Positions 17,965 to 53,049 are shown, numbered from the stretch's first letter. The stretch: DNA of 64,000 nucleotides from Coriobacteriia bacterium (GCA_016649875.1 JAENWW010000007.1:19715-83714), one strand, 5' to 3'. Notes: a model not told the origin generated them from the sequence alone. Numbers and translations are program-made.

Positions 17965-19131
17965 TCAGTTGCCTTTGACTGCATGGCGTCGCTTGTATTC
18001 GGCGGTTGTCGTGTCGTTGAGTTGGATATGGGCGTGGTTGCCTCCATCGGGCGCATACGTACCGAGCTGATTGCGCACATAGGCCGACATTTTTCTGACG
18101 CGCGCAAGGGGGGTGACTCCTCCGACTACGGTCTCGCCCCTTTTTACGTAGGGGGATTTCACATGGATGAGAACGATTTCAAGGCTCGGGTACCCGACGG
18201 GTCGTATGTGGATTTCATAATCTTCGACTTTGTTCTCGTAGTTATACGTGCAAACTTTTGTGACGGTGCCTGTGACAGGCGCGAAAACAAGACTGCTCGA
18301 CGCAGCCCCGCAATCGATGGCGGTCATTGCCGAACCGCTCCTTCCCGTGCGCCAAAATTTGAGGGCGGAGCCGCACAGGAGCGCATTATTCCCCGTTTGT
18401 TGAACGGTTTTGTCGCGCTTGCTCCCCGTATCCTTTTCCGCCTTGCTCAAATCTTCAAACGGCATATGCGTGCTCAGCGGCAATGCATAAGAATAGCTTG
18501 CTTGATGGAATGCGACCTCGGTGAGATTTTCCACGCTTACGGGAAGGTGAATTATAACGCCTTTGTAAGTTGCGAGTTGCGGCGTCGGATTTGCGCTCGT
18601 CACCCCGAGCGCGACCGCTTCTTGCGCGATGCTTTGAAGCCTCGCATCCGCGGTGGAGCCCACCGATGCGACGGCGGAAGTGTCTGTCGACGATGTATCC
18701 CCTGCGTAGAGGGAATTCGTGCTCGCATACGCCGCCGGGACCTTATTTTGTGAAACGCTCGACTCCACTCCCGACCGGTTCGCAATTTTTCGACCGATTG
18801 CGTCGGTGTGTTTCATCCAGAGTATTCCCGAGAGGAAGAGAAGCACCAAACATATGCCCCCGATAGTCATGAGGCGATTGACGGTCTTGCGCTTTTCGGC
18901 TTGACGTATTTCGTGCCTGGATTGGAGTCTGATGCCGGCATCCCGTGTCGGGCGCAGACCGGCGCTCTTTCCGAATGCGTTGTCCCATGCCGGCTTGTTG
19001 CTCTTGATGACCTGCGGTTGCTCGTTGTCGCGTCTTTGTGCATTCGTCCGAACGGTGCGCTTTTTAGGCCGGACATGTTCACGGCGCGTCGAAAATTCAG
19101 AGGAATGTCTTGAGTGTTTCGATTTGTACAT
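17965..19131 (-). CDS. Membrane-anchored protein with a degenerate M23/LytM-like C-terminal domain
   Basis: It has a basic N-terminal tail and one TM segment (LMTIGGICLVLLFLSGILW). The C-terminus AMTAIDCGAASSSLVFAPVTGTV...GGNHAHIQL aligns by eye to LHTGVDIGAPSGSTILAAASGTV...GPHCHWEV of the M23 protein at 12198..13460, with the first His replaced by Met. Confidence 0.5.
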   Translation of the reverse strand: MYKSKHSRHSSEFSTRREHVRPKKRTVRTNAQRRDNEQPQVIKSNKPAWDNAFGKSAGLRPTRDAGIRLQSRHEIRQAEKRKTVNRLMTIGGICLVLLFLSGILWMKHTDAIGRKIANRSGVESSVSQNKVPAAYASTNSLYAGDTSSTDTSAVASVGSTADARLQSIAQEAVALGVTSANPTPQLATYKGVIIHLPVSVENLTEVAFHQASYSYALPLSTHMPFEDLSKAEKDTGSKRDKTVQQTGNNALLCGSALKFWRTGRSGSAMTAIDCGAASSSLVFAPVTGTVTKVCTYNYENKVEDYEIHIRPVGYPSLEIVLIHVKSPYVKRGETVVGGVTPLARVRKMSAYVRNQLGTYAPDGGNHAHIQLNDTTTAEYKRRHAVKGN

Positions 19132-19215: not shown

Positions 19216-19524
19216 GTGAAAAAAGGATTAAAGATAAAGGCAGCGGAAGAATTCGGGCAGACGCTGGTTGAGGATGCACGGGCTCAGGCACAAGAGACGG
19301 TGGATGAGGCGCTTGTAAAAGCAGTATCGATTGTCTTCGAAATGCGCGAAAAGGCCCTCAAAGAAGTACGGACATACGGTTCGAAGTATGTACTTGAAGC
19401 TCAAAACGATGCCGAACAGATGCTTATCGACGCTAAAAAGAAATCTGAAAAACTGACGATCCTCGCCGAGAAGAATGCCGATGACGCCATCGGGAAAGCC
19501 CTCGCCTTGATAACGCGACGGTAG
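19216..19524 (+). CDS. Small coiled-coil protein resembling V/A-type ATPase stalk subunit G/H (hypothetical)
   Basis: I chose GTG 19216, which follows GGAG, over track start 19114, which overlaps the divergent gene. The sequence is Ala/Glu/Lys-rich with a heptad-like pattern. Confidence 0.35.
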   Translation: MKKGLKIKAAEEFGQTLVEDARAQAQETVDEALVKAVSIVFEMREKALKEVRTYGSKYVLEAQNDAEQMLIDAKKKSEKLTILAEKNADDAIGKALALITRR

Positions 19525-19547
19525 GGAAGGAAGAACGTTATAACGGT

Positions 19548-19916
19548 ATGGCATTTTCGGATAAAGTTGAAATCATACAGGCAAATGCTCAGCGTGAAGC
19601 GCGTTCCATCATCGATGGAGCGCAACTGATTGCTGAAAATAATATCAAACAGGCGCTTCAAGAAGCTGACATCGAGCATGCGCGAATGTTGAAAGAAGCT
19701 GAATTTCAGGCGAAACAGGAAGCTCAGAAGATTTCGTTTGACGGCCGCACGGCCGCACGAGAGCATATACTTTCGGTTCGGGCAGCCCTCGTAGAAAACG
19801 CCGTGAGTAGGTTCGCGCAGATGCTGAAGGATAGAGAGCCCGAGGAACTCGTGTCGGCGCATCGGCAAGAGCTCGAGACACTTTTCGGTAGGGAACTGTT
19901 TCGTGAAAAGAAATAA
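19548..19916 (+). CDS. Small coiled-coil protein resembling the N-terminal half of V/A-type ATPase subunit E (hypothetical)
   Basis: 122 aa containing IIQANAQREARSIIDGAQLIAENNIKQALQEADIEHARMLKEAEFQAKQEAQK. The resemblance is by pattern only. Confidence 0.35.
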   Translation: MAFSDKVEIIQANAQREARSIIDGAQLIAENNIKQALQEADIEHARMLKEAEFQAKQEAQKISFDGRTAAREHILSVRAALVENAVSRFAQMLKDREPEELVSAHRQELETLFGRELFREKK

Positions 19917-20032
19917 TCGGAGTCCCTCATTTCCGCCGCTTGACGTATCTATCATTCGCGGTTATCGTCGGTATTGGAATCGATTATGAATTCAGGACTG
20001 TGCCGTCTCGGTATTGACTGAGGAGATACAAG

Positions 20033-28864: not shown

Positions 28865-29125
28865 ATGACTACCGATCGTAATAGTCGCAAGGTTCGTCAG
28901 GGAGTCGTTGTATCGGCTTCCGGCGACAAAACTTGTGTTGTTGAAATCAAAGAGCGCAAGAAGCACGAAACCTACAACAAGATGATTACCCGTACCAAGA
29001 ATCTTCATGCTCATGATGAGCAGAACGAGGCCGGTATCGGTGACACCGTTTCTATCATGGAAACCCGTCCGCTTTCGAAAATGAAGCGTTGGCGTCTTGT
29101 TGAGATTATTGAGAAAGCTAAGTAA
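28865..29125 (+). CDS. rpsQ: 30S ribosomal protein S17
   Basis: I prefer ATG 28865, which follows GGAAGTGAGGAA. Contains [19 protein letters not shown]. Confidence 0.9.
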
Positions 29126-29205
29126 GCAAGTATTTGGACCATGTGAGTCGTGAATGTGTGCATCCGCACACCGCTGATGTGCTCACAGTTTTGAGAGGTT
29201 GAACG

Positions 29206-29574
29206 ATGATCCAAGCAGAGACCAGGATAAAAGTCGCCGACAACTCGGGCGCACGTAAGCTTTTGTGCATCAAAGTTCTCGGTGGTTCGAAGCGCCGCTA
29301 TGCTTATGTCGGCGATGAAATTATTTGCACGGTGAAAGAGGCGTTGCCAAACGGCGCCGTCAAAAAGAGCGAGGTAGTTCGTGCCGTGGTCGTACGTACC
29401 AAAAAAGAGGTGCGTCGCCCGGATGGTAGCTACATCAAGTTCGATGAAAATGCCGCCGTCGTAATCGATGATCAAGGTAGCCCACGCGGTACACGTATCT
29501 TCGGCCCTGTAGCTCGTGAGCTTCGCGAGAAGCGCTACATGAAGATCGTTTCGCTCGCTCCTGAGGTTCTTTAA
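29206..29574 (+). CDS. rplN: 50S ribosomal protein L14
   Basis: The N-terminus [17 protein letters not shown]. Confidence 0.95.
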
Positions 29575-29587
29575 GGAGACCTGCACA

Positions 29588-29905
29588 ATGACGAAACTAA
29601 ACATTCGCAAAGGCGATAAAGTAGCAGTTATCGCCGGCAAAGACAAAGGCAAGGAAGGTCGCGTTCTTGCAACGTTCCCTTATAAGGAGCGCATACTCGT
29701 CGAGCATGTCGCCGTTGCCAAAAAGGCTACTCGTCCGACGCAGCAAAATCCGCAAGGCGGCATCGTCGACATGGAGTTGCCCGTGCACGTGAGCAACTTG
29801 ATGATTGTTTGCCCGAAGTGTGGAATGCCCACTCGTGTTTCGATCAAGCGCGAAGATGGCGTACGCACCCGTGTTTGCAAGAAGTGCGGCAACGATATCG
29901 ACTGA
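29588..29905 (+). CDS. rplX: 50S ribosomal protein L24 (C-terminus carries CxxC...CxxC)
   Basis: Contains the KOW motif KGDKVAVIAGKDKGKEG. The C-terminal sequence is CPKCGMPTRVSIKREDGVRTRVCKKCG. Confidence 0.92.
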   Translation: MTKLNIRKGDKVAVIAGKDKGKEGRVLATFPYKERILVEHVAVAKKATRPTQQNPQGGIVDMELPVHVSNLMIVCPKCGMPTRVSIKREDGVRTRVCKKCGNDID

Positions 29906-31350: not shown

Positions 31351-31887
31351 ATGTCACGTATTGGTAAGATGCCTATTCCGGTTCCTGCCGGCGTAGAAGT
31401 AACAATCAACGGTCAAGACGTTACGGTCAAAGGTAAGCTCGGAGAGCTGTCCCGTACCTTCGTCGACGAGGTCACCATTACACGCGAAGGCGACGAGATC
31501 ATCGTTGCTCGCAAGGAGGAAACTCGCGAGGCTCGCTCATTGCACGGTCTCAGCCGTTCGCTCCTCAATAATATGGTAGTTGGCGTCACCGAAGGCTACG
31601 AACGCAACCTGGAAATCGTCGGTGTCGGTTACCGTGCCGTCCTTAAAGGCAAGGATCTCGATCTTGCGCTCGGTTACAGTCATCCTGTGATCATCACGCC
31701 TGAAGACGGCATTACATTCGAAGTCCCTGTCCCCACACAAATTAAAGTCAAGGGCATTGATAAGCAGCGTGTCGGCCAAGTTGCGGCAGACGTTCGTAAG
31801 TGGCGTAAGCCTGAGCCCTACAAAGGCAAAGGTATTCGTTATGCAGGCGAGCATGTCCGTCGTAAGTTGGGCAAGGCTGCTAAGTAG
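31351..31887 (+). CDS. rplF: 50S ribosomal protein L6
   Basis: The N-terminus MSRIGKMPIPVPAGV. Confidence 0.95.
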   Translation: MSRIGKMPIPVPAGVEVTINGQDVTVKGKLGELSRTFVDEVTITREGDEIIVARKEETREARSLHGLSRSLLNNMVVGVTEGYERNLEIVGVGYRAVLKGKDLDLALGYSHPVIITPEDGITFEVPVPTQIKVKGIDKQRVGQVAADVRKWRKPEPYKGKGIRYAGEHVRRKLGKAAK

Positions 31888-31941
31888 TAAAAGCACCCGT
31901 CCGGGGTTACAGTCCCGGTAAATGCGAGGAGAAGAGCTTAA

Positions 31942-32313
31942 ATGAACAAAATGAAGGCAAAAGTTGCTTCGTTGGCACGACGCCAGCGACGCGTGCGCGC
32001 AAAGCTGACCGGGACCGCGGAACGTCCGCGTCTCCGAGTGGTGCGTGGTAATGCACACATCTCTGCTCAACTGATTGATGATGTCGCAGGTAAGACTTTG
32101 GCTGCTGCTGCTTCCAACGAGGCAGAGCTTTCAAAGAAGCTTAAGAACAACGGTAGCAACATTGCGGCTGCAAAGCTCGTCGGTGAGACCGTCGGTAAGC
32201 GTGCGGTAGAGGCGGGTGCCACGGAAATTCTTTTCGATCGTGGCGGTCACGTCTATCATGGTAGGGTAAAAGCTCTCGCGGACGGCGCTCGTAGTGCCGG
32301 CCTTAGATTCTAG
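31942..32313 (+). CDS. rplR: 50S ribosomal protein L18
   Basis: Contains [20 protein letters not shown] and [20 protein letters not shown]. Confidence 0.93.
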
Positions 32314-33620: not shown

Positions 33621-34877
33621 GTGCTTTCCGCTATCGCTAATGCTTTCAAGGTTCCGGATCTTCGCAAGAAAATCCTGTTTACCTTGATAATCGTTGCGCT
33701 CTACCGGATTGGGTGTTTTATCCCCGTCCCGGGTGTGAACTTGGATGCGATTGCTTCTCAAGTCAGCGGCAGCGCAGCTCTGGGCATGCTCAGCATGTTC
33801 ACCGGTGGTGCACTTGAGAACTTTGCCGTGTTCGCAATGGGCATCATGCCCTACATCACCGCATCGATTATCATGCAGCTCCTTCAGGCGGCCGTACCGA
33901 CTCTTGAAGCACTTGCAAAAGAAGGCGAATCGGGACAGCGTAAGATTACCCAATATACCCGTTACCTCACATTGGGTATCGGTCTTTTCGAGGGAGTCGC
34001 TTATCTCGGTTTGTTCCGTGGCTCCATTGTGCAATCGGCGGCAATCCCGCCAGTTGTGACGAGCATAATGATCGTCGCTTCGTTGCTTGCCGGTACCGCC
34101 TTGATCATGTGGCTCTCGGAGCTCATCACACAGCGCGGTGTCGGAAACGGCATGTCGATCATCATATTCGTGAGTATCGTCGCTCGTTTTCCTCAGGCTT
34201 TGGCAAGTTCCTTGACTTTGAAAAGCGTGCCGGCGACCTTGTTCATTTTGTTCGTCGTTTTGTTCGTTATCGCCGCGGTCATTTTCATCGATCGCGGTCA
34301 GCGCCGGATTCCCGTTCAATACGCCAAGCGCGTGGTGGGACGTCGTGTATTCGGAGGGTCGGGAACGTATATTCCCCTGAAGGTGAACGGGGCAAACGTC
34401 GTGCCGATTATCTTTGCAATCGCGCTTTTGCAGGTTCCGGTTCAACTTGCGCAGTTTTTCCCGAAAGTCGGATGGATCACGACAGTTTCGAATGCCGTCG
34501 CCTCCGGCCCGGTCAACTGGACGATTACGTTTGCTCTCATCGTATTCTTTTCATACTTTTACACGGCGCTCATCTTCAACCCGCTCGAGCTTTCGGATAA
34601 CCTTCGCAAGCAAGGCGGATTCATTCCCGGCATTCGACCGGGGGCGCAGACAACCGCTTACATCGAGCGTGTCATGAACCGCATCGTTTTGCCGGGTGCG
34701 CTCTTCCTCGGTATCATCGCAGTCGGAACTTCGATCCTGTTTGCGACGACCGGTAACACGCTCGTTCAACAGTTCGGCGGTACCTCGATTTTGATTATGG
34801 TAAGCGTTGCACTCGAAACCATGACGCAGGTCGAAAGCCAGCTGAAGATGCGTCATTACGAAGGGTTCTTCAAATAG
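33621..34877 (+). CDS. secY: Preprotein translocase subunit SecY
   Basis: 418 aa and multi-TM. The N-terminus contains DLRKKILFTL...YRIG..IPVPG. Confidence 0.93.
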   Translation: MLSAIANAFKVPDLRKKILFTLIIVALYRIGCFIPVPGVNLDAIASQVSGSAALGMLSMFTGGALENFAVFAMGIMPYITASIIMQLLQAAVPTLEALAKEGESGQRKITQYTRYLTLGIGLFEGVAYLGLFRGSIVQSAAIPPVVTSIMIVASLLAGTALIMWLSELITQRGVGNGMSIIIFVSIVARFPQALASSLTLKSVPATLFILFVVLFVIAAVIFIDRGQRRIPVQYAKRVVGRRVFGGSGTYIPLKVNGANVVPIIFAIALLQVPVQLAQFFPKVGWITTVSNAVASGPVNWTITFALIVFFSYFYTALIFNPLELSDNLRKQGGFIPGIRPGAQTTAYIERVMNRIVLPGALFLGIIAVGTSILFATTGNTLVQQFGGTSILIMVSVALETMTQVESQLKMRHYEGFFK

Positions 34878-35274: not shown

Positions 35275-36576
35275 TTAATTATTGAAGAATCCTATCGGAT
35301 GTATGATGTTATCGCGCTTCACATCGGCCTCGTTTATGCTTGTGTTGCAAAGCGATGTCGCGCGCCTGACGATATGGTTCCCGAAGCGTCTGCGCAATTC
35401 ATCGATTGCGGTATCCAAACACTCCATGCGGCAGCGATCCGCCTCGGGTAAGAAGAGGTCGAGCTGCATCGGGGCGTCGGCATCGACGAAGTCGGAGGCG
35501 CGAATACTAATCGCACGCAACGGGTGGAAATCGTCGATGTGATGGTTTTCTTCCAAAAGCCGAAAGGCGCATGCGGCTATTTCCGCTGTGATGTTGCTCG
35601 GCGCGACCAGTTTTGCCTGTCTTGTGAAACTATGCAAATCATCGGAAGTGCGCGGGGATACGCTCACGGTCCGTGCCTTTACTTTGTGCTCGCGCATCCG
35701 ATGAGCCACTGATTCGGCCAACAGGTACACGAGAGCTTTCGCATCGCTTCGAGTGGTTATGTCGTGCGGTGTCGTGAGGCCGTTTCCGATACTCTTCATC
35801 TCATAATCGACGCCGGAGCGCAGAGGGTCGAGAACCTTGACGGGTGAACTGTCCTCTCCGCGTGCAAAGCTTTGCAAAATGTACCCCATTTTTCCCAGTC
35901 TGTTCGTCAGGCGCACCGTCGATGCTTGCGCGATTTCTCCTATGGTGAAAATCGCGCAAGCTGCAAGCTTTTTCTTCGTCGCCGGTCCCACATAAAGCAT
36001 TTCTTCGGCCGGTGCGTTCCATACGATTTCACGATAGTTTTCACGGGTTATGCAGGTTATGGCATCCGGCTTTTTGTAGTCGCTGCCGAATTTGGCGAAT
36101 ACTTTGTTCCAGCTGACGCCTATGGATACCGTCACGCCCAGTTCGCTTTTCACCCTCTGGCTGATTTCTTGCGCGATAGTGAGAGGCGGGCGGCCGAGAA
36201 GTCGCATCGAACCGGTGAGATCGAGCCAAGCCTCGTCGGGGCCGAAAGGTTCGACTTGATCGGTGTAGTCGTAATAGATTTCGCGTGCCAATCGCGAGTA
36301 TTCCAAATAAAGACGATAGTTGGGAGGAACGACTACGAGTGCCGGGCATTTGCTACGGGCCGACCACAGCGTTTCGCCACTTTTAACGCCGCACTTCTTG
36401 GCGATTTCATTCTTCGCGAGCACTATACCGTGACGGCTATCTTCGTCGCCTCCGACCGCGACGGGTTTATCGCGGAGCTCCGGGTTATGAAAGCATTCGA
36501 CATTCGCATAAAAACAATTCATATCTGAATGCAAAATCACTCGATCAGCCAATGGTTCCTCCCCGTAAGCGAACAT
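35275..36576 (-). CDS. dinB: Y-family (DinB/UmuC-like) translesion DNA polymerase
   Basis: Contains ILHSDMNCFYANVE, GGDEDSRHGIVLA and the Y-family palm motifs. I placed the start at ATG 36576, inside the SOS box, rather than track TTG 36615. Confidence 0.85.
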   Translation of the reverse strand: MFAYGEEPLADRVILHSDMNCFYANVECFHNPELRDKPVAVGGDEDSRHGIVLAKNEIAKKCGVKSGETLWSARSKCPALVVVPPNYRLYLEYSRLAREIYYDYTDQVEPFGPDEAWLDLTGSMRLLGRPPLTIAQEISQRVKSELGVTVSIGVSWNKVFAKFGSDYKKPDAITCITRENYREIVWNAPAEEMLYVGPATKKKLAACAIFTIGEIAQASTVRLTNRLGKMGYILQSFARGEDSSPVKVLDPLRSGVDYEMKSIGNGLTTPHDITTRSDAKALVYLLAESVAHRMREHKVKARTVSVSPRTSDDLHSFTRQAKLVAPSNITAEIAACAFRLLEENHHIDDFHPLRAISIRASDFVDADAPMQLDLFLPEADRCRMECLDTAIDELRRRFGNHIVRRATSLCNTSINEADVKRDNIIHPIGFFNN

Positions 36577-36583
36577 CTGTTCG
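36570..36583 (-). promoter_or_regulatory. LexA (SOS/Cheo-type) box CGAACATCTGTTCG overlapping the polymerase start codon
   Basis: It is a perfect match to CGAAC-N4-GTTCG. On the minus strand it reads CGAACAGATGTTCG and contains the ATG. Confidence 0.7.
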
Positions 36584-36586
36584 TAT

Positions 36587-36615
36587 AGTATGACTCGAAA
36601 GAGAAAAGGAGTCAA
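36587..36615 (-). promoter_or_regulatory. Promoter of the polymerase operon (near-leaderless transcript predicted)
   Basis: On the minus strand: TTGACT (36615-36610), a 17-nt spacer and CATACT (36592-36587). The ATG lies about 10 nt downstream of the -10 element, and there is no SD. Confidence 0.45.
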
Positions 36616-36751: not shown

Positions 36752-37381
36752 ATGAACATCGTTTTACTCGGCGCGCCTGGTGCGGGAAAAGGTACTCAGG
36801 CGAAAAATATCATCGACAAGTACAAGTTGCCACATATTTCAACCGGTGACATCTTGCGCGCAGCCGTCGCAAACAAGACGGAGCTCGGATTGGAAGCCAA
36901 GAAGTTTATGGATGCCGGCGACCTCGTTCCGGATGCGGTCGTCATCGGATTGGTCAAAGACCGCCTGTCACAAAAAGATACAGGAGAAGGGTTCATCCTC
37001 GACGGTTTCCCCCGCACGACCGCGCAGGCCGTCGCGCTCGATGAAGAGCTCGCCGATTTGGGCAAATCGATTTCGGCGGCAATCGCTGTCGATGTCGATT
37101 CCGAGGTCATCATCGGTCGTCTCACTTCTCGTCGCACGTGTCGCGCATGCGGACGTATCACCTCGGAATCGGAAGGAGCCGCCTGTTCCGTTTGTGGCGG
37201 CGAGCTCTATCAGCGTGAAGATGATAATGAGAAGACGGTGCGCAATCGTCTCGATGTCTATGCGAAGTCGACGTTGCCGCTTATCGATTATTACGGTGGA
37301 AAAGGTGTGCTTCACACAATCGACGGCGATCGTCCCGTCGCAGTCGTGTGGGCAGACGTAAAAGCAGTTTTGGAGGCCTAA
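36752..37381 (+). CDS. adk: Adenylate kinase (zinc-lid type)
   Basis: The N-terminus MNIVLLGAPGAGKGTQA and a lid with CRACG...CSVCG. Confidence 0.95.
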   Translation: MNIVLLGAPGAGKGTQAKNIIDKYKLPHISTGDILRAAVANKTELGLEAKKFMDAGDLVPDAVVIGLVKDRLSQKDTGEGFILDGFPRTTAQAVALDEELADLGKSISAAIAVDVDSEVIIGRLTSRRTCRACGRITSESEGAACSVCGGELYQREDDNEKTVRNRLDVYAKSTLPLIDYYGGKGVLHTIDGDRPVAVVWADVKAVLEA

Positions 37382-45730: not shown

Positions 45731-46297
45731 ATGGATAAGGCAAAAATCGAAGAGGGCGTAAGACTCATTCTCGAGGGGATCGGGGAGGATACCGCTCGCG
45801 AGGGGCTTTTGGACACTCCGAAACGTGTCGCGAACATGTATGAGGAAATCTGTGCCGGGCTCGAGCAAGATCCGGCGGAGTATTTCAATGTGCTCTTCAA
45901 CGAGGACCATCAGGATATGGTTCTCGTGAGAGACATTCCGCTCTATTCGATGTGCGAGCACCATCTCGCTCCTTTCTTCGGGGTGGCGCACATCGCCTAC
46001 ATTCCGGGCCCGTCCGGGGAAATCTGTGGGCTCTCCAAGCTTGCGCGCGTCGTGGATGCTTACGCGCGTCGGCCTCAGATACAGGAGCGACTCACTTCTC
46101 AAATCGCGGAGTGCATCGTGGAAAACCTCCATCCGTTGGGGATGCTCGTGGTCATAGAGGCCGAGCATCTCTGCATGTCGATGCGCGGTGTGAGAAAGCC
46201 CGGGACGAAAACGGTGACGTCGGCGGTTCGCGGATCGTTTCAAACGGATTCGCGAACGCGCGCAGAGGCCATGGCTCTCATAGGCTCGAGAAAATAA
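45731..46297 (+). CDS. folE: GTP cyclohydrolase I
   Basis: Contains LLDTPKRVA and [12 protein letters not shown]. Confidence 0.93.
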
Positions 46298-46320
46298 TCG
46301 AACGTAAGAAGTCAATACAT

Positions 46321-47670
46321 ATGAGTTCAATCTGGAAATGCGCCGAGTATGAGATCGACACGGGCACACCCCAAATTATGGGGATTGTCAATGTCACCAC
46401 GGACTCGTTCTCAGACGGTGGCGCCTACATCGATACACAGACAGCTATAACGCATGCCGGCGAACTCATCGCCCAAGGAGCCACGATCCTCGATATCGGA
46501 GGTGAGTCGACTCGTCCGGGCTCGAGTGCTGTCAGTCCCGAGGTTGAGACGGCTCGCGTCGTGCCGGTCGTCGAAGGTCTAGCAGGTTGTGGTGTGCCGA
46601 TTTCGGTGGATACGCGCAACGCTGAAACAGCGCGTGCCGTCATCGCCGCCGGAGCACACATCATAAACGATATATCCGGTTTCACCGACCCTGAAATGAT
46701 TGATGCCGTCGCGGGCAGCAAAGTCGGCCTCGTCGTCATGCACATGAAAGGGGAGCCCAAATCGATGCAGACCGATCCGGTCTATGATGACGTCATCCGC
46801 GAGGTTTGCACCTTCCTTGAGCAACGCAGCACCGAATTGCAGCGTCACGGCATAGATCGCGGTCGCATTTGTTTTGATCCCGGGTTCGGTTTCGGCAAAA
46901 ACTATGAGCATAATCTCCTTTTGCTGGGGGATATGGACCGCATCGTGAATCTCGGCTATCCGGTGCTCGTCGGAGTTTCCCGCAAAAAGTTCATCGCACG
47001 TCTTTCCGGTATCGCCGAGCCTGCATTGCGCGACATTCCTTCTGCGCAAATCGCGCTTGACCTCATATATCACGGAGCGTCAATCGTTCGGGTTCACAAC
47101 GTCGAGGAAACGAAAACCGCAATCGAACGGGAAAGCAAGCCGGTGTCGGCCTATATCGCTCTGGGCACCAACATCGGTGACAGACTGAAGAATTTACGGA
47201 ACGCAGTCGGTCATTTACGGCGGATTCCGCACGCGAATATTACGAATGCCTCGCAGGCGCTCGAGTCGGAGCCGGCATATAAAACAGACCAACAAAGTTT
47301 CGGCAATGCCGTTGTGAAACTGGAAACCTCACTCGGGATGTTCGCTCTTTTTGCAGAAATTCAATATATCGAGCAAAAAATGAGCCGTGTCAAATTGGAG
47401 GAGAACGGTCCGCGCATCATCGATTTGGATCTTTTGCTTTATGGAGACACGATATATAAAACTCCCGAGCTCGAGGTCCCCCATGCGGGTATCGCAGAGA
47501 GGGCGTTTGTGACAGAGCCCCTCCTTGAAATCGAGCCAAACCTCATTTTGCCGGATGGAAGGGTGGTGGCACGCGCAAAGGCCGAGAGGGGGCGCGTGCG
47601 AGGCGTTATCGGTGAAATCACACCGAAAATGGGCGCTGCAAGCACAGAACAAGGAATGTCGTTGATGTAA
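46321..47670 (+). CDS. folP-folK: Fused dihydropteroate synthase / 6-hydroxymethyl-dihydropterin pyrophosphokinase
   Basis: I trimmed the track ORF 45952.. to ATG 46321. The N-terminal part is DHPS (IMGIVNVTTDSFSDGG, DIGGESTRPG). The C-terminal part is HPPK (AYIALGTNIGDR, GPRIIDLDLLLYGD). Confidence 0.85.
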   Translation: MSSIWKCAEYEIDTGTPQIMGIVNVTTDSFSDGGAYIDTQTAITHAGELIAQGATILDIGGESTRPGSSAVSPEVETARVVPVVEGLAGCGVPISVDTRNAETARAVIAAGAHIINDISGFTDPEMIDAVAGSKVGLVVMHMKGEPKSMQTDPVYDDVIREVCTFLEQRSTELQRHGIDRGRICFDPGFGFGKNYEHNLLLLGDMDRIVNLGYPVLVGVSRKKFIARLSGIAEPALRDIPSAQIALDLIYHGASIVRVHNVEETKTAIERESKPVSAYIALGTNIGDRLKNLRNAVGHLRRIPHANITNASQALESEPAYKTDQQSFGNAVVKLETSLGMFALFAEIQYIEQKMSRVKLEENGPRIIDLDLLLYGDTIYKTPELEVPHAGIAERAFVTEPLLEIEPNLILPDGRVVARAKAERGRVRGVIGEITPKMGAASTEQGMSLM

Positions 47671-47803
47671 ATGGTGTGCAAGCTCTGAAGGTTTTGTTAA
47701 ACCTGCAATAATAGAAGAAGGTAAGAATAATTTCCGAACAGGAGGACCGCGCAGACCCGAACAACGGCTGCGACGGCGTACCGGACAGGAGCTCGAAATA
47801 ATC

Positions 47804-48664
47804 ATGGACACGATAAACGTCGATCACCGCATAACCGTAAAAGATTTAACACGAATGAAAGCCCGGCGTGAGCCGATCGTCATGTGTACGGCGTACGATT
47901 TTCACTCAGCACGTCTCGTCGACGAAGCCGGCATCGATTCGATTCTCATCGGTGACTCTATGGGTATGACCATGATGGGATATGATTCGACGGTTCCCGT
48001 CACTCTCGACGACATACTCTTTTCCACCAAAATCGTTTCGCGCACTTCTCATCACGCCTTTGTGATCGCGGATATGCCTTTCATGAGTTTTCAGGTGTCC
48101 TATGAAGAGGGCATGCGCAATGCCTCCAGATTGGTCAAAGAGGGTGGCGCGCAGGCAGTGAAGCTCGAAGGAGCGACCGATCTTACGCTCAAGCTCACCG
48201 GCGGACTGAGCCGGGCCGGTATTCCCGTCATCGCGCATCTCGGGCTCACTCCTCAATCCATCAACACTCTCGGCGGGTATTTTTCGCAGGGTCGCGCAAA
48301 AGAACCGGCGCTGCTCCTGGTACAAGAAGCGCACAAAGTCGAAGAGGCGGGCGCTTCTGCCGTGGTTTTGGAGTGCATTCCGACAGAGCTGGCTGCACAC
48401 ATCACCGCATCGCTCTCCATTCCCACAATCGGTATCGGAGCCGGAATCGGTTGTGACGGTCAGGTCCAGGTATTTCATGACTTGATGGGTTTGGGCACCT
48501 TTCAGCCCAAACACGCAAAGCGATATGCCCATGTGGAGGAGATTGCCGCTGACGCTCTTGGGCGGTTCTTGTCTGAGACGAAGGCCGGGGAGTTTCCCGG
48601 CGAAGAACAATCGACGCATTTGGCATCCGACGTGGCACAAAGCATCGAAGAGCTGAGGAAATGA
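47804..48664 (+). CDS. panB: 3-methyl-2-oxobutanoate hydroxymethyltransferase
   Basis: Contains MCTAYDFHSARLVDEAGIDSILIGDSMGM. Confidence 0.92.
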   Translation: MDTINVDHRITVKDLTRMKARREPIVMCTAYDFHSARLVDEAGIDSILIGDSMGMTMMGYDSTVPVTLDDILFSTKIVSRTSHHAFVIADMPFMSFQVSYEEGMRNASRLVKEGGAQAVKLEGATDLTLKLTGGLSRAGIPVIAHLGLTPQSINTLGGYFSQGRAKEPALLLVQEAHKVEEAGASAVVLECIPTELAAHITASLSIPTIGIGAGIGCDGQVQVFHDLMGLGTFQPKHAKRYAHVEEIAADALGRFLSETKAGEFPGEEQSTHLASDVAQSIEELRK

Positions 48665-48667
48665 AGA

Positions 48668-49552
48668 ATGCATATATTTAAGACCAAGTCGGCGGTTCAC
48701 GGTTTCAGTGAGAACGCACATAGTGCGGGAAAGACCGTCGGATTCGTGGCGACCATGGGCGCCCTTCATGAGGGGCATTTGACATTGGTCCGTTACGCGC
48801 TCATGCAAAATGACATCGTCATAGTATCGATATTCGTGAATCCCACGCAATTCGGACATGATGAGGATTATTCGCAATACCCGCGCACTCTCGAGGAGGA
48901 CTGTGTGCTCCTCGAAGAACTTGGGGTGCACGGCGTCTTCGCCCCGACGGCGGGCGAGATGTATGACTCCACCATCGAGCAGATGAACGCCAACGACGGG
49001 GGATTGACGAGAACGCAAATTAACCCCGGCGAACTGGCGACTCTGTGGGAGGGTGAATTGCGCCCGGCGCACTTCGCCGGTGTATGCCTCGTGGTGGGAA
49101 AGCTTTTGAACATCGTGAGGCCTAATCGTGCGTATTTCGGCGAGAAAGATTATCAGCAACTCGCAATCATTCGGCAGCTCGCCGCCGATCTCGACCTTTT
49201 CGTCGAAGTGATCGGAGTGTCCATCGAGCGCGCCGACGACGGTCTTGCCCTTTCGAGTCGCAATCGTTATCTCAACGTCGAGCAACGCAAGGGGGCATGT
49301 TCGTTGTACGAATCGATTGTGCTCGCGCAATCTTTGTGTGCCAAAGGTGAGGTGATGTGTGCCGAGATCGTGCGCGACGTTACCAATTATTTGACGCTTC
49401 GATGTGATGGCATGCTTTCCATCGGGTATGTTGCCATTGTGGACCCGATGACGCTGAAACCGCTCGAGTCGGTTATCGACGAGGGGCGTCTTTTGATTTC
49501 GGTTCAGCTCGACGGCATACATCTCATAGATAATGCGCTTATCTGCGCGTGA
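48668..49552 (+). CDS. panC: Pantoate--beta-alanine ligase
   Basis: Contains GFVATMGALHEGHLTLV and FGEKDYQQL. The stop TGA at 49550-49552 lies inside the left direct repeat. Confidence 0.93.
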   Translation: MHIFKTKSAVHGFSENAHSAGKTVGFVATMGALHEGHLTLVRYALMQNDIVIVSIFVNPTQFGHDEDYSQYPRTLEEDCVLLEELGVHGVFAPTAGEMYDSTIEQMNANDGGLTRTQINPGELATLWEGELRPAHFAGVCLVVGKLLNIVRPNRAYFGEKDYQQLAIIRQLAADLDLFVEVIGVSIERADDGLALSSRNRYLNVEQRKGACSLYESIVLAQSLCAKGEVMCAEIVRDVTNYLTLRCDGMLSIGYVAIVDPMTLKPLESVIDEGRLLISVQLDGIHLIDNALICA

Positions 49553-49584
49553 AGCGATTTGAGCTCAAAGAAAGCAGGTGACGG
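49533..49584 (+). repeat. Left copy of a 52-bp direct repeat (panC 3' end plus intergenic leader)
   Basis: ATGCGCTTATCTGCGCGTGAAGCGATTTGAGCTCAAAGAAAGCAGGTGACGG is 51/52 identical to 50911..50962. The only mismatch is C49566 versus A50944. Decayed similarity continues for about 23 nt (16/23) to 49607. Confidence 0.95.
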
Positions 49585-49610
49585 CAGGGGGAGCCATCTG
49601 ATTAAATTTA

Positions 49611-50684
49611 TTATAAAGCCGCCTCTGCCTCAGATACCAGCTCTTCCATAAGCTCTTTCACGGGCACTATTTTATCAACTCTGTAAGCATTTGTACCAAC
49701 GAAGATAAGTCCTTCGTCAACATTTCCTTTTACTGCTTCTATTAATGCTTTTGTAATACAATAGGGGGTATTTTTAGGGTTACAAGTTTTAATGCAGTTA
49801 AAGCATCTCTTAACTTGAATGTCTCCCCTGGAAACTTCATCCAAAAATTTATTTCCAACAGCTCTTCCCGGCATCCCCACAGGGCTTTTTATTATCCCAA
49901 TATCTTCTTCTTTAGCATGTATATAAGCCATTTTAAATTTAATATCCGCATCGCATTCATCAGTTGCTGCGAATCTGGTAGCCATCTGTACTCCAGCTGC
50001 TCCTGCCTTTAAACATTTTGCAATATCTTGTCCGGTATAAATTCCCCCAGCTGCAATCACCGGTATTTTCTTGTTATATTTCTCTTCATAGGGCTTTAAA
50101 ACTTCAATAACTTCTTTAACAATCCCCGTTAATTCATAGTTTTCTATTTCATCAAGCTGTTCTAATTTAAAACCTAAATGTCCTCCGGCTTTTGGGCCTT
50201 CTACGACTACTGCATCAGGTACATATGAGTATTTCTTATCCCATACCTTTGAAATAAGTGCCGCTGCCCTTCCTGAAGAAACAATAGGAGCAGCCTTTGT
50301 AGCTGAGCCTTTCACCATTTCAGGCAAATCCATGGGAAGTCCAGCTCCTGAAATTATCAGGTCGATTTTTTCTTCAACGGCGGTGATTACCATTTCTCTG
50401 TAATTATTCATGGCAACCATTATGTTAACGCCTATTATTCCATTAGGGCTAAGCGTTCTCGCTTTTCTAATCTGACTTATCAGGCCTCTTATATTTGCTT
50501 CTTTATTATTAGTTTCAAAATCCTCTTCCATATACCCTATCTGAGCTGCGGATATTATTCCGATTCCGCCCTCGTTTGCAACTGCTGATGCGAGAGATGA
50601 CAGGGATACTCCAATACCCATTCCTCCCTGAATTATAGGAACTACAACTGTTAAATTGCCAATTTTAAGTGAAGGTAATTTCAT
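49611..50684 (-). CDS. FMN-dependent nitronate monooxygenase / enoyl-ACP reductase II (FabK)-like oxidoreductase
   Basis: 357 aa with PIIQGGMGIGVS, IGVNIMV, VVVEGPKAGGHLG and PVIAAGGI (TIM-barrel NMO/FabK family). The C-terminus has a 4-Cys cluster, CFNCIKTCNPKNTPYC. It ends in a double stop TAATAA. Confidence 0.75.
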   Translation of the reverse strand: MKLPSLKIGNLTVVVPIIQGGMGIGVSLSSLASAVANEGGIGIISAAQIGYMEEDFETNNKEANIRGLISQIRKARTLSPNGIIGVNIMVAMNNYREMVITAVEEKIDLIISGAGLPMDLPEMVKGSATKAAPIVSSGRAAALISKVWDKKYSYVPDAVVVEGPKAGGHLGFKLEQLDEIENYELTGIVKEVIEVLKPYEEKYNKKIPVIAAGGIYTGQDIAKCLKAGAAGVQMATRFAATDECDADIKFKMAYIHAKEEDIGIIKSPVGMPGRAVGNKFLDEVSRGDIQVKRCFNCIKTCNPKNTPYCITKALIEAVKGNVDEGLIFVGTNAYRVDKIVPVKELMEELVSEAEAAL

Positions 50685-50709
50685 TGCAGCAACTCCTGGT
50701 TTATTGTAT

Positions 50710-50739
50710 TTTATAAGATAAAATTACTTTGATATTCAA
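50710..50739 (-). promoter_or_regulatory. Sigma-70/SigA-type promoter of the islet gene
   Basis: On the minus strand: TTGAAT (50739-50734), an 18-nt spacer and TATAAA (50715-50710). Downstream there is AGGAG, then 8 nt, then the ATG. Confidence 0.55.
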
Positions 50740-50743
50740 AGTA
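50725..50743. promoter_or_regulatory. Perfect 19-bp palindrome (putative operator) overlapping the -35 region
   Basis: TACTTTGA-TAT-TCAAAGTA, with 8-bp arms and no mismatch. Confidence 0.5.
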
Positions 50744-50910
50744 TATATGAGGACAGAAGGCATGTCTAGTAAAATTTAAACCGATCTGAATATTCTCCTG
50801 CACTATTTGTGCGGATATAGTCATCTTCTTTACATTCCTTTTTATATTCAGCATTTATCTTTATATTTAGAAGAGGAGATTCTAAAGGGTAATTTGTTTT
50901 AAGACAGATG

Positions 50911-50962
50911 ATGCGCTTATCTGCGCGTGAAGCGATTTGAGCTAAAAGAAAGCAGGTGACGG
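50911..50962 (+). repeat. Right copy of the 52-bp direct repeat (functional leader/RBS of the dedA-birA gene)
   Basis: 51/52 identical to 49533..49584. It ends 1 nt before ATG 50964 and contains the RBS-like AGGTGA. Confidence 0.95.
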
Positions 50963-50963
50963 T

Positions 50964-52469
50964 ATGGGAAGCCAGCTGATGCAATCCGTTCTGCCTCTTT
51001 ATAATTGGCTGGCCGGAATAATGGTGCCTTGGGGTCTCATGGTTCTTTTTGCGCTTTCTTTTCTCGAGAGTCTTTATATCATCGGATTATTCACCCCGGG
51101 CGAAGTGACGGTCGTTGCCGCCGCTCTTGTGGCGGCGGGGAGCAAAACTCCCCTTTGGGCGGTTCTTGCCGTGGCGGTGCTCGGTAATATTTCGGGTGTC
51201 GCGTTCGGATATTACGTCGGTCATAAGTTCGGGCTTACGAGGATGCGAATTTTGATGGAGAAGTTCGCCGTCACGCGCATCGGGCGCTGGACTAAAACCG
51301 ATCCGGGATTGATCGATGACATCGCCGAATATTTTGAGAAACACGGTCAGATGACGGCATTCGGGGCGAGGTTCGCGTATGGGGCGAAGAGCTTCATTCC
51401 TCCGATTGCCGGTGCGACGCACATGGGTTTCTCGTCGTTTATCTTAAGCTCTTTTCTGGGCGGTCTGATTTATAATGTGGGGCTGGTCGCCGTCGGATGG
51501 GCACTTCGGGTTAACGCGCCGCTCGCTGCCACGATTATGAAATCAATCGGGTGGTTTGCCGCGATGATGGTCGTCATTTTGGGCGTTTTCGGGTTCGCGA
51601 TGATCAGGCGTTACGCAAAAGCGCGCAAGATGAGGTTTTTGGAGAAACATGATATTCCCCATGAGATACCGCAATCGGTGGCTCGTCGTTTTTGGAGAGA
51701 GATACAATTCATCGAGGAGGTATCCTCCACCAACGACTACGCGTATGAATCCGCGATGAGGGGACAGGCTCCTCCGGCAGCTTACATCGCCGCCCGCCAG
51801 ACAGCCGGACGTGGCCGATTGGGCCGCACATGGGAATCTCCGAGAGGCAATGTGTATTTGTCCATGCTTCTCGAAAAAACGCCACCGCAGCAGGGGAACG
51901 AAGGCGAGATAGGGTCGTTGTCGCTCTTGACGGCGATAGCCGTCGGACGTGCTTTCCGGAAAATATTTTTTGAAAAGGGCAAGCCCGAACTCGTCGATTC
52001 GCTTAAAATAAAGTGGCCGAACGACATCTATATCGGCAAACTCAAAGCGTGCGGCATTTTGCTCGAGGCTCGTTCCGGATTCATCATCGTCGGAGTGGGA
52101 GTCAACAATATCCGTGAATCGGCGGGTTCTGTTGCATTTTTGAGTGATTTCGGTATCGATATCACCAACAAACAGCTTGCGTATGATATTCTTGATAGCT
52201 TCGAGGACATGTATTCGGGTTGGTTGGAAAGCGGTTTCATACCGTATCTCGAAGAGTATACGAACTTCGAAAAGAATGTATCACGGTACGTAGAGGTGTT
52301 CGATACTGCCGGCAATCTTCTCGACGCGGGATATTGCGTCGGGTTCACTCCATCGGGGCATATGATTCTGGCCGATGGGATTGAGAGCGATTCGCCGTCG
52401 GGACACAGCAATGAACGAGAAATATCTTCCGGTGATGTCACGTTGAAAAAGGGGACTGCACATGAATGA
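50964..52469 (+). CDS. birA: Fusion protein with an N-terminal DedA-family membrane domain and a C-terminal biotin--[acetyl-CoA-carboxylase] ligase domain
   Basis: The first roughly 200 aa are DedA-like (FLESLYIIGLFTPGE, FGARFAYGAKSFIPPIAG). From about residue 250 it is BPL (QTAGRGRLGRTWESPRGN, KIKWPNDIYIGKLKACGILLE). There is no N-terminal HTH. Confidence 0.8.
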   Translation: MGSQLMQSVLPLYNWLAGIMVPWGLMVLFALSFLESLYIIGLFTPGEVTVVAAALVAAGSKTPLWAVLAVAVLGNISGVAFGYYVGHKFGLTRMRILMEKFAVTRIGRWTKTDPGLIDDIAEYFEKHGQMTAFGARFAYGAKSFIPPIAGATHMGFSSFILSSFLGGLIYNVGLVAVGWALRVNAPLAATIMKSIGWFAAMMVVILGVFGFAMIRRYAKARKMRFLEKHDIPHEIPQSVARRFWREIQFIEEVSSTNDYAYESAMRGQAPPAAYIAARQTAGRGRLGRTWESPRGNVYLSMLLEKTPPQQGNEGEIGSLSLLTAIAVGRAFRKIFFEKGKPELVDSLKIKWPNDIYIGKLKACGILLEARSGFIIVGVGVNNIRESAGSVAFLSDFGIDITNKQLAYDILDSFEDMYSGWLESGFIPYLEEYTNFEKNVSRYVEVFDTAGNLLDAGYCVGFTPSGHMILADGIESDSPSGHSNEREISSGDVTLKKGTAHE

Positions 52470-53049
52470 AATTGCAAAAGAAAGTACCGTCAGAATCAAT
52501 GCGCGTTTGCAGTCGTTGACGCTTATCGCCCTTTTCGCCGCGCTGATTGCAGCGTCTTCGCTTTTTGCGGCGTTTGTGTATCCGATTCCTTTTACGCTTC
52601 AAACGCTCTTCGTCATTCTTGCCGCGCTGCTGTTGACACCGGCTCAGGCGACGGGCGCGATGGCGCTCTACGTCGGTATCGGGGCCATCGGACTGCCGGT
52701 ATTTTCGGGCGGCCGCGGTGGGCTCAGTGTGATTGTAGGACCCACCGGCGGGTACCTCTTCGGATTCATCGTCGCCGCTTGCGTCGGCTCATACCTGATG
52801 GGGCGCCTGCGTAAGACGCAGGTGAATGCGTTCATCACTCGTGGGATCGTGGCACTTCTCGTGATTGCGCTCGTCGATACATTCGGCGTCGCCTGGATGA
52901 TGGCTTCTGCGGGTATGTCTTTTAACGCCGCCGTCGTTGCGGGAGTCGTTCCCTTCATCGTTCCCGATGTGCTCAAAGGTATCGTCGCCGTCGTTTTGGC
53001 GAGTGCGCTTTGTCGCTATATGCCTATGTCGGGGGGAACCGGCAAGTAG
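52462..53049 (+). CDS. bioY: Biotin transporter BioY
   Basis: 195 aa and multi-TM, containing PFTLQTLFVILAALLL and GPTGGYLFGF. It overlaps the birA stop by 8 nt. Confidence 0.88.
   Translation: MNEIAKESTVRINARLQSLTLIALFAALIAASSLFAAFVYPIPFTLQTLFVILAALLLTPAQATGAMALYVGIGAIGLPVFSGGRGGLSVIVGPTGGYLFGFIVAACVGSYLMGRLRKTQVNAFITRGIVALLVIALVDTFGVAWMMASAGMSFNAAVVAGVVPFIVPDVLKGIVAVVLASALCRYMPMSGGTGK

Follow-up and report, generated by a model that had tools for sequence, protein, structure and literature searches.

The amelioration of acquired genes has been modelled by Lawrence and Ochman, and islets of a single ameliorating gene share with the locus described here a foreign composition, a promoter of their own and a position between core genes. 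This locus lies in a stretch of 64,000 nucleotides (nt) from a Coriobacteriia bacterium (GCA_016649875.1, JAENWW010000007.1:19715-83714), hereafter the window, whose coordinates are used throughout and whose lineage is called W. Between panC and a dedA-birA fusion gene the window carries an AT-rich islet of ~1.3 kb with one gene for a flavin mononucleotide (FMN) oxidoreductase, bracketed by two copies of the panC/dedA-birA junction. The closest solved relative of the encoded protein is FabX of Helicobacter pylori, a decanoyl-acyl carrier protein dehydrogenase/isomerase (PDB 7e1q among others), of which the [4Fe-4S] cysteines and the catalytic His have been defined, the [4Fe-4S] sub-domain stands where FabK has an NAD(P)H-binding motif, and >50% identity has been used for calling homologs (PMC8626469).

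In this context, we consider it likely that the islet goes back to an ancient, one-time capture of a clostridial fragment with a target duplication of ~80 nt, followed by vertical descent in at least three related species. In the ancestor of these Coriobacteriia-like species, a ~1.3-kb fragment of clostridial type, comprising a FabX-like FMN/[4Fe-4S] gene along with a sigma-70-type promoter and an operator of its own, would have been captured once between panC and dedA-birA. The same event would have duplicated the last eight panC codons and stop (segment a, 25 nt), the 32-nt spacer with the dedA-birA ribosome-binding site (RBS; segment b) and the first ~7 dedA-birA codons (segment c, 23 nt). 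Subsequently, an AT-ward or neutral substitution bias in W would have left the gene hardly ameliorated; sister lineages would have drifted GC-ward, bringing the gene to a G+C content at third codon positions (GC3) of ~0.57, and their repeat copies would have escaped homogenisation and decayed.

Structure of the islet and integrity of the assembly

The islet and its immediate surroundings comprise the following features.

48668..49552, + strand: panC (pantoate-beta-alanine ligase), intact; PF02569 304 bits, TIGR00018 278 bits (cut-off 213)
49528..49607, + strand: left junction copy; a 49528-49552, b' 49553-49584, c' 49585-49607
49608..50905, - strand: inserted foreign DNA, ~1.3 kb; composition, and blastn to AT-rich clostridial-type contigs
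49611..50684, - strand: FMN oxidoreductase of the NMO family, FabX-like, 357 amino acids; Pfam NMO 184.2 bits
50906..50985, + strand: right junction copy; a' 50906-50930, b 50931-50962, c 50963-50985
50964..52469, + strand: dedA-birA fusion (VTT/DedA membrane domain and biotin-protein ligase), intact; PF09335 and PF03099, TIGR00121 137 bits

A repeat search returned one direct repeat of 80 nt (49528-49607 and 50906-50985), with 90% identity and a spacing of 1378 nt. In the left copy, segment a is the functional panC tail, b' a copy of the spacer and RBS, and c' a pseudo-dedA start in which ATG has become AGG. In the right copy, a' is a non-functional panC tail with its stop, b the functional leader with the RBS, and c the true dedA-birA start, with its ATG at 50964. 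Both panC and dedA-birA are intact beside the insert because this junction was duplicated. Identity is not even along the repeat, since a and b together agree at 55/57 positions and c at 17/23 (49585-49607 vs 50963-50985), the latter including three exchanges, T>C, T>G and A>G, that give CAGGGGG in c' vs TATGGGA in c.

The first-pass annotation had described a 52-nt repeat with 51/52 identical positions, and our recount of 49533-49584 vs 50911-50962 agrees, with this core lying inside the longer repeat. It had also read the left copy as continuing into a decayed dedA-birA start, which is what we see, with the count corrected from 16/23 to 17/23, and had taken the whole for a duplicated junction, as opposed to the short target duplication of a transposon, a view that the 80-nt copy spanning both gene ends and the spacer confirms. 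The 16-mers of the core do not occur again in the 64-kb window, so that the core is no dispersed repeat there, a case that would have spoken against the proposal. No match to Rfam or a structured RNA was found in the repeat or the islet at E up to 1, and fold z-scores of the repeat copies ranged from -0.05 to -2.0.

The foreign composition claimed for the segment is equally evident. In 200-nt windows its G+C content is 0.27-0.435 vs 0.51-0.62 in the flanks, and 49608-50905 is the sole strongly AT-rich stretch of the window, which elsewhere has 45-61% G+C (mean of the window, 53%). The 1298 nt between the repeat copies have a G+C content of 0.373, and the inserted gene has a GC3 of 0.288 vs 0.60-0.65 in panB, panC, dedA-birA and bioY.

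A misassembly, which the first-pass annotation had advised checking, is countered by independent reproduction of the junctions. Three independent Logan unitigs of SRR23193557 (L172, L081 and L167) hold both copies and all four flanks, inner and outer, with the two copy-specific mismatches kept; L167 begins inside the right copy and has its diagnostic A. These unitigs represent a slightly different strain (12 substitutions in 1405 nt, all transitions) and break at the shared core. Moreover, two contigs of related organisms, L083 (Logan) and L254 (JGI), run singly across both junctions, and a further one, L082 (ENA), across the panC-side junction. An assembly chimera or repeat-collapse artefact of metagenome assembly, for which the longest exact run shared by the copies (just 33 nt, below typical read size) might be invoked, is effectively refuted by the unitigs and by occupation of the same site in these three other assemblies.

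Origin and identity of the inserted gene

Sequence comparison shows a foreign, clostridial-type origin of the segment. The nearest proteins outside the host clade have 83-87% amino acid identity and are encoded on contigs of 32-36% G+C, which bears out the clostridial style noticed at first; named homologs at ~70% belong to Clostridium, Tepidibacter and Serpentinicella. At the DNA level, blastn to clostridial-type contigs covers 49607-50780 at 81-84% identity, that is, the open reading frame (ORF) and 96 nt of promoter and operator, and clostridial GC3 values are 0.24-0.27. An exact-DNA scan with the conserved 39-nt 3' end of the gene gave no match in genome or metagenome collections. In searches for a mobile reservoir, plasmids yielded only ordinary NMO genes (69-72% identity), phages no match and IMG/VR viral contigs no relative.

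The gene had been annotated as an intact FMN oxidoreductase of 357 amino acids of the NMO/FabK family. It is intact, and its product matches Pfam NMO (PF03060) at 184.2 bits vs a 28-bit cut-off, with residues 7-351 on profile positions 4-330/331. The FabK part of the label does not stand, as the NCBIfam equivalog model TIGR03151 is matched at 135.2 bits, below its cut-off of 453.1 bits. Among solved structures, H. pylori FabX matches best, with a score of 250 bits (residues 3-350) and 43.5% identity in 340 aligned residues. FabX C300, C304, C308, C320 and His182 align with C294, C297, C301, C309 and H169 of the inserted protein, and these four Cys and the His are invariant in an alignment of 18 sequences. 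The inserted protein and FabX also have in common an NMO-type triosephosphate isomerase (TIM) barrel and a C-terminal sub-domain. FabK likewise belongs to Pfam NMO and binds FMN, but its structures match weakly (60-100 bits), and the inserted protein, unlike FabK, falls under the equivalog cut-off and retains the four cysteines of the [4Fe-4S] sub-domain.

Accordingly, the protein is closest to the FabX fold class and is not FabK, and its activity may be of the acyl-acyl carrier protein (ACP) dehydrogenase/isomerase type. We label it FabX-like only, because its identity lies below the 50% homolog criterion of the FabX authors, because one of two ACP-contact residues is unconserved in our reading of the alignment (T130 corresponds to Met118; R164 corresponds to Lys151, a conservative exchange), and because its clostridial relatives are encoded beside ArsR and a metal ATPase and in no fab cluster. 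The ratio of nonsynonymous to synonymous divergence (dN/dS) of the inserted gene is 0.04-0.09. The locus documents the passage of a FabX-like FMN/[4Fe-4S] gene from Clostridia to an uncultured Coriobacteriia-like actinobacterium, and strong purifying selection has maintained the gene in three species. Should its activity be FabX-like, these anaerobes would have gained a way of making unsaturated fatty acids.

Occupied and empty sites in related lineages

The host lineage belongs to uncultured, Coriobacteriia-like Actinomycetota. Named PanC matches at ~50% are Coriobacteriia or Anaerosomatales metagenome-assembled genomes, and among GTDB species representatives the best identity among the matches listed is 47% for PanC, 38% for DedA-BirA and 67% for SecY, so that no close genome appeared among them. 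In a sister lineage represented by L082 and L083, whose PanC is 93% identical to that of W, the same site is occupied by a copy of the gene with 88% identity. A third carrier, L254, was found in a JGI metagenome by a DNA-pattern scan from the upstream stretch of the islet, which also gave one chance match (L253). As the first-pass annotation had proposed, we compared the panC-birA junction in relatives and found two empty sites in more distant lineages, L168 and L169, with the same synteny, where panC leads straight onto dedA-birA across 11-13 nt (DedA-BirA ~54% identical).

The carriers agree in detail. The boundaries of the islet are identical in W, L083 and L254, and all three have the three c' substitutions (TATGGGA -> CAGGGGG). 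In the gene, W and L083 have 45 derived nucleotides in common, spread along its whole length, with a GC excess of 31 to 14. A neighbour-joining tree placed W and P0002 as sisters, and both the host genes and the inserted gene resolve as (W,(L083,L254)), in 500/500 bootstraps for every codon-position partition. The carriers diverged at a synonymous divergence (dS) of 0.5-0.9, and in all three carrier pairs gene dS amounts to ~1.5-1.9 times that of the host genes. These sequence patterns show a single shared origin of the insert and its co-divergence with the host; together, the shared boundaries, c' changes and synapomorphies and the agreement of tree, dS and dN/dS argue for one insertion before the species split and vertical inheritance under purifying selection thereafter.

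On two points the earlier view has therefore to be revised. It implied a recent landing, and the presence of the same gene at the same site in two sisters, the matching trees and the shared c' changes speak for an old insertion. It also held that relatives with this gene at this site, with host-like composition and no repeat, would count against it; two lineages largely correspond to that description, with GC3 of 0.58 and 0.56 and repeats that are strongly decayed.

A mosaic or allelic replacement, in which a fresh clostridial allele entered an old, ameliorated islet, was considered on account of a 47-nt stretch at the 3' end that is identical in W and L083. It was ruled out, since the synapomorphies are evenly spread, no breakpoint is seen and the 47-nt stretch is already conserved among clostridial sequences. 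Separately, L083 has a 6-nt tandem duplication (GCGTGA GCGTGA) after the panC stop, which repeats the last panC codon and stop (L083:2186-2197, in reverse-complement orientation).

Composition, repeat identity and apparent age

The carriers differ strongly in the two traits by which an insertion might be dated.

W: gene GC3 0.288; a+b repeat mismatches 2
L083: gene GC3 0.58; a+b repeat mismatches 26
L254: gene GC3 0.56; a+b repeat decayed

Third-position changes in four host genes (45731-49552) were polarised between L082 and W with L168 as outgroup.

W branch, host third positions: GC>AT 68, AT>GC 34; implied equilibrium GC3 ~0.53
L082 branch, host third positions: GC>AT 31, AT>GC 84; implied equilibrium GC3 ~0.86

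These counts show opposite compositional drift in W and its sister, and panC GC3 is 0.65 in W, 0.74 in L082 and 0.48 in the outgroup. In the inserted gene, among the third positions occupied by A or T in each of the four clostridial relatives, 7.6% gained G or C on the shared stem, 8.0% on the branch of W and 45.6% on that of L083. Host gains per AT site, which are lower bounds counting resolved changes only, are at least ~0.105 (W) and ~0.26 (L082), of the same direction and similar size. A slow-evolving W host lineage was ruled out as an explanation, the host branches being equal in a relative-rate test. Because the bias in W is AT-ward or neutral, the lack of amelioration is therefore no proof of recent arrival.

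The repeat gives a parallel picture. At informative sites of a+b, four are shared by paralogs and none by orthologs; in segment c, one is shared by paralogs and three by orthologs. If a+b had decayed like c', ~15/57 mismatches would be expected, and two are seen. Such a pattern is one of concerted evolution, and the simplest account would be that gene conversion or unequal crossing-over has kept a+b identical in W. Homogenisation would be bounded on the right by selection, because conversion by c' would destroy the true ATG, and the pseudo-dedA start would have been left at neutral divergence.

An alternative is that W acquired its copy recently and on its own, or re-acquired it, the source being an unsampled relative or a donor rich in AT, and that entry took place through homologous recombination in the flanking panC and dedA-birA sequences, the copies of the sisters being older. 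The GC3 of 0.288 is indeed close to clostridial values, the gene has a short W branch (24 changes, against 125 in L083), the repeat copies are almost identical, and the whole islet, including a 125-nt stretch beside the right repeat copy, is less GC-rich than in L083. However, with identical boundaries and shared c' changes, any donor would already have had the junction of the host clade, the synapomorphies shared with L083 and their GC excess fit an early stay in a GC-rich ancestor, the gene tree equals the host tree, no mosaic break is seen along the gene, and lineage substitution bias covers most of the asymmetry. We therefore regard a recent acquisition by W as unlikely and retain the old, shared insertion.

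Several observations weigh against this retained account. On the W branch the gene has 10 AT>GC third-position changes vs ~28 expected from the host, a shortfall of 2- to 3-fold; it shrinks when parallel changes hidden by the amelioration of L083 are considered, yet these do not account for all of it. Four host genes and a single distant, AT-richer outgroup underlie the estimate of the substitution bias, and the sampling of three carrier and two empty-site lineages is thin. Gene conversion is inferred from four informative sites and not seen directly; moreover, one conversion event cannot set its direction, since the right copy has a functional-type panC tail and the left copy a functional-type RBS. 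Finally, the true donor sequence is unsampled, so that microhomology at the junctions is unreadable and the mechanism of capture is without direct support.

The main use of the locus is as a caution in dating transfers. Amelioration is no clock, since it depends on the direction of the substitution bias of each lineage, and flanking repeats can be made to look young again by gene conversion. Here an insertion that is probably old and vertically inherited has a composition like that of the donor, long flanking repeats that match almost perfectly and a close fit to its cargo gene, which marks a limit of inference from sequence alone.

Mode of capture

In keeping with the first-pass annotation, no recombinase or transposase was found in the single-ORF islet or among 35 window ORFs scanned against Pfam, and a repeat search found no terminal inverted repeats at the islet ends. 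There is also no imperfect inverted repeat of attC type after the gene, and no IntI among the scanned ORFs. What favours a one-off illegitimate capture, we infer, is this absence of evidence for an enzyme-driven event. Such a capture might have taken place while a staggered break was repaired, through end-joining or template switching, with fill-in that duplicated the junction.

The suggestion that the repeats are att-like sites can be put in a more explicit form: the islet would be a non-autonomous, att-flanked cassette of the type of cis-mobilizable elements (CIMEs) or cargo-only elements, with the ~57-nt core as recombination site and the recombinase encoded elsewhere, still or recently mobile. 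The sharp drop in identity between a+b (55/57) and c' (17/23) resembles a core with arms, the target gene has its 3' end rebuilt by the repeat in the manner of integrase att sites, and the de Bruijn graph of SRR23193557 (L172, L081, L167) equally fits the integrated form or an empty site plus a circle. The lack of an integrase in the islet and the scanned ORFs, of a further core copy in the window and of a plasmid, phage or viral-contig reservoir speaks against it, as do co-divergence of gene and host in three lineages and the simple decay of the repeats in two of them, unexpected for a site used by a recombinase. Furthermore, by our reading of the sequences, no inverted-repeat architecture of recombinase type is kept in the core across lineages. 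A mobile cassette is thus quite improbable.

The islet might instead derive from a Campbell-type event, in which a small circle with a copy of the junction and the clostridial gene entered by a single homologous crossover. Exactly this geometry, with a homologous segment on both sides and both flanking genes intact, would result, but an earlier illegitimate joining of host junction to clostridial DNA would still be required, and 80 nt is short as a substrate for homologous recombination. Moreover, only the gene, its promoter and 125 nt lie between the repeats, with no remnant of a replicon or vector, and no related plasmid was found. We give this route little chance of being correct.

Still less credence attaches to a novel process, whether the ~57-nt core is a working recombination site of a recombinase-less cassette moved by host functions, or the ~80-nt duplication reflects an undescribed mode of capture that spares both neighbours. 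The step from 55/57 to 17/23 and the two-in/two-out graph of SRR23193557 are compatible with a working recombination site; for a new mobility mechanism there is no supporting evidence. The 80-nt junction duplication is an unusual footprint, and a single event defines no mechanism.

The left edge of the foreign DNA had been described as unusually tight on the double stop codon of the gene, and homology to clostridial contigs does end at 49607-49611, at the stop codons, the second in-frame stop lying at 49608-49610. This fit is probably survivorship, in that only events sparing panC, the dedA-birA leader and the incoming gene would persist. For a single, one-off event, coincidence is the simplest view of the placement between genes of pantothenate and biotin synthesis or use.

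Expression signals of the inserted gene

The following elements accompany the gene; the RBS, promoter and palindromic operator reported before were found again, the promoter by a promoter scan.

50693-50697, - strand: RBS AGGAG; from the sequence
50763-50768 and 50740-50745, - strand: promoter, -35 TAGACA and -10 TATACT, respectively, with a 17-nt spacer; promoter scan
50726-50742: perfect 17-nt palindrome ACTTTGAATATCAAAGT, overlapping the -10; sequence reading
50781..50905, no strand assigned: AT-rich stretch between promoter block and right repeat copy, common to L083 and L254 only
49575..49598, - strand: candidate terminator hairpin of the inserted gene, with stem GAUGGC/GCCGUC, C-rich loop and U-rich tail, from c' and the end of b'

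The clostridial contigs L084, L085 and L170 have the block of promoter, operator and RBS (50693..50768) in conserved form. Clostridial contigs have a perfect variant of the palindrome, ACTTTGATTATCAAAGT, and the palindrome has one mismatch in L081 and two each in L083 and L254. An ArsR/HTH_5 regulator and an HMA P-type ATPase lie divergently to the gene on the clostridial contigs; neither was co-transferred, and the operator in the host clade may be orphaned and decaying. A reading of the palindrome as a FabT-type operator was dropped, as it was unconfirmed from the literature and the divergent ArsR-family neighbour in the donors is the simpler candidate regulator.

Of the 12 transitions between W and the SRR23193557 strain, six fall in the 17-nt promoter spacer (50746-50762; L081:242-258), one in the palindrome and one beside the RBS, and only four in the 1074-nt ORF. 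Polarised with L083 and the clostridial contigs, the spacer changes are mostly derived in the window strain and mainly AT>GC; they could be a conversion patch or the result of selection on promoter strength.

The AT-rich stretch aligns with L083 at z = 31 (50781-50905). As for its origin, this stretch of ~125 nt (125-129 nt) has no significant similarity to clostridial upstream regions (z <=1.6) or to host flanks. At the other end of the islet, the candidate hairpin folds at -12.7 kcal/mol (z -2.7), and equivalent hairpins occur in L083:2122-2143 and L254:1794-1815, with one A-U to G-C exchange. It may, suggestively at most, have been co-opted as terminator of the inserted gene, which would be a possible explanation for the retention of c'.

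Genomic setting

The islet stands in the core chromosome, with the gene order EF-G, ribosomal-protein operons, secY, adk, map, rpoA, tilS, hpt, ftsH (placed by synteny with L168), folE, folPK, panB and panC. Downstream, bioY (52462-53049; BioY PF02632) overlaps the end of dedA-birA. The biotin-protein ligase of dedA-birA is without the usual N-terminal helix-turn-helix domain and is fused instead to a DedA/VTT membrane domain, an architecture (PF09335 and PF03099) present in 14 database proteins, 12/14 of which come only from Logan or ENA metagenome sources. DedA-BirA may act as a ligase that is tethered to the membrane and coupled to the uptake of biotin.

Other observations concern more distant parts of the window. 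The genes secY and adk are usually neighbours in the spc operon region; here a gene for a translesion polymerase of DinB/Pol IV type (IMS and IMS_C; 35275-36615, - strand) lies between secY (33621-34877) and adk (36752-37381). At the left end (298-2288), two genes with T2SSF domains, of the type found in the tad/pilus assembly platform, stand in tandem, with an ORF of 710 amino acids downstream. This ORF (3238-5370) has no Pfam match at E <=1e-5, and the same is true of 17965-19131 (- strand, 388 amino acids), 19401-19955 (- strand, 184 amino acids), 29011-29652 (- strand, 213 amino acids) and 31537-32070 (- strand, 177 amino acids). The last two, antisense in the ribosomal-protein region, may be spurious, and a long antisense ORF across panB and panC (47906-49522) certainly is.

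Comparison with known systems

Compared with described forms of gene acquisition, the islet differs most plainly from transposons and insertion sequences, in that it has neither a transposase ORF nor inverted repeats at its ends and its duplication measures 80 nt vs 2-14 bp. It is also unlike an integron cassette, having a promoter conserved from the donor, no attC and no IntI among the scanned ORFs.

The likeness to integrase islands, CIMEs and cargo-only, tycheposon-like elements goes further, as these also have direct repeats of tens of nt, a rebuilt target 3' end, metabolic cargo and no recombinase inside the unit. Nevertheless, of the traits that define an integrase-type element, the flanking repeats that rebuild the target are present, and a recombinase and variable presence are not: the insert has no integrase in the islet or the 35 ORFs, no sign of repeated or independent insertion and no presence/absence variation among carriers. 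Its repeat, moreover, consists of two gene ends and a spacer, not a tRNA or one gene end, and decays freely in two lineages.

Campbell-type integration and homology-facilitated illegitimate recombination in the course of transformation likewise place foreign DNA within host-derived flanks in the absence of a transposase, and a single crossover duplicates the homologous segment; the insert differs from them in having no vector or replicon remnant. Homology-facilitated events usually delete recipient DNA, and here 80 nt have been duplicated instead.

Ameliorating single-gene islets in the sense of Lawrence and Ochman correspond to the locus in further respects, namely presence in a sub-clade, empty sites in outgroups and near-host composition in two of three carrier lineages. 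Two features set the insert apart from them: its amelioration is lineage-dependent, with nearly none in W, and its ~80-nt target duplication is unusually long. In brief, the feature is of an ordinary kind, an old, vertically inherited, horizontally acquired single gene, with an unusual footprint.

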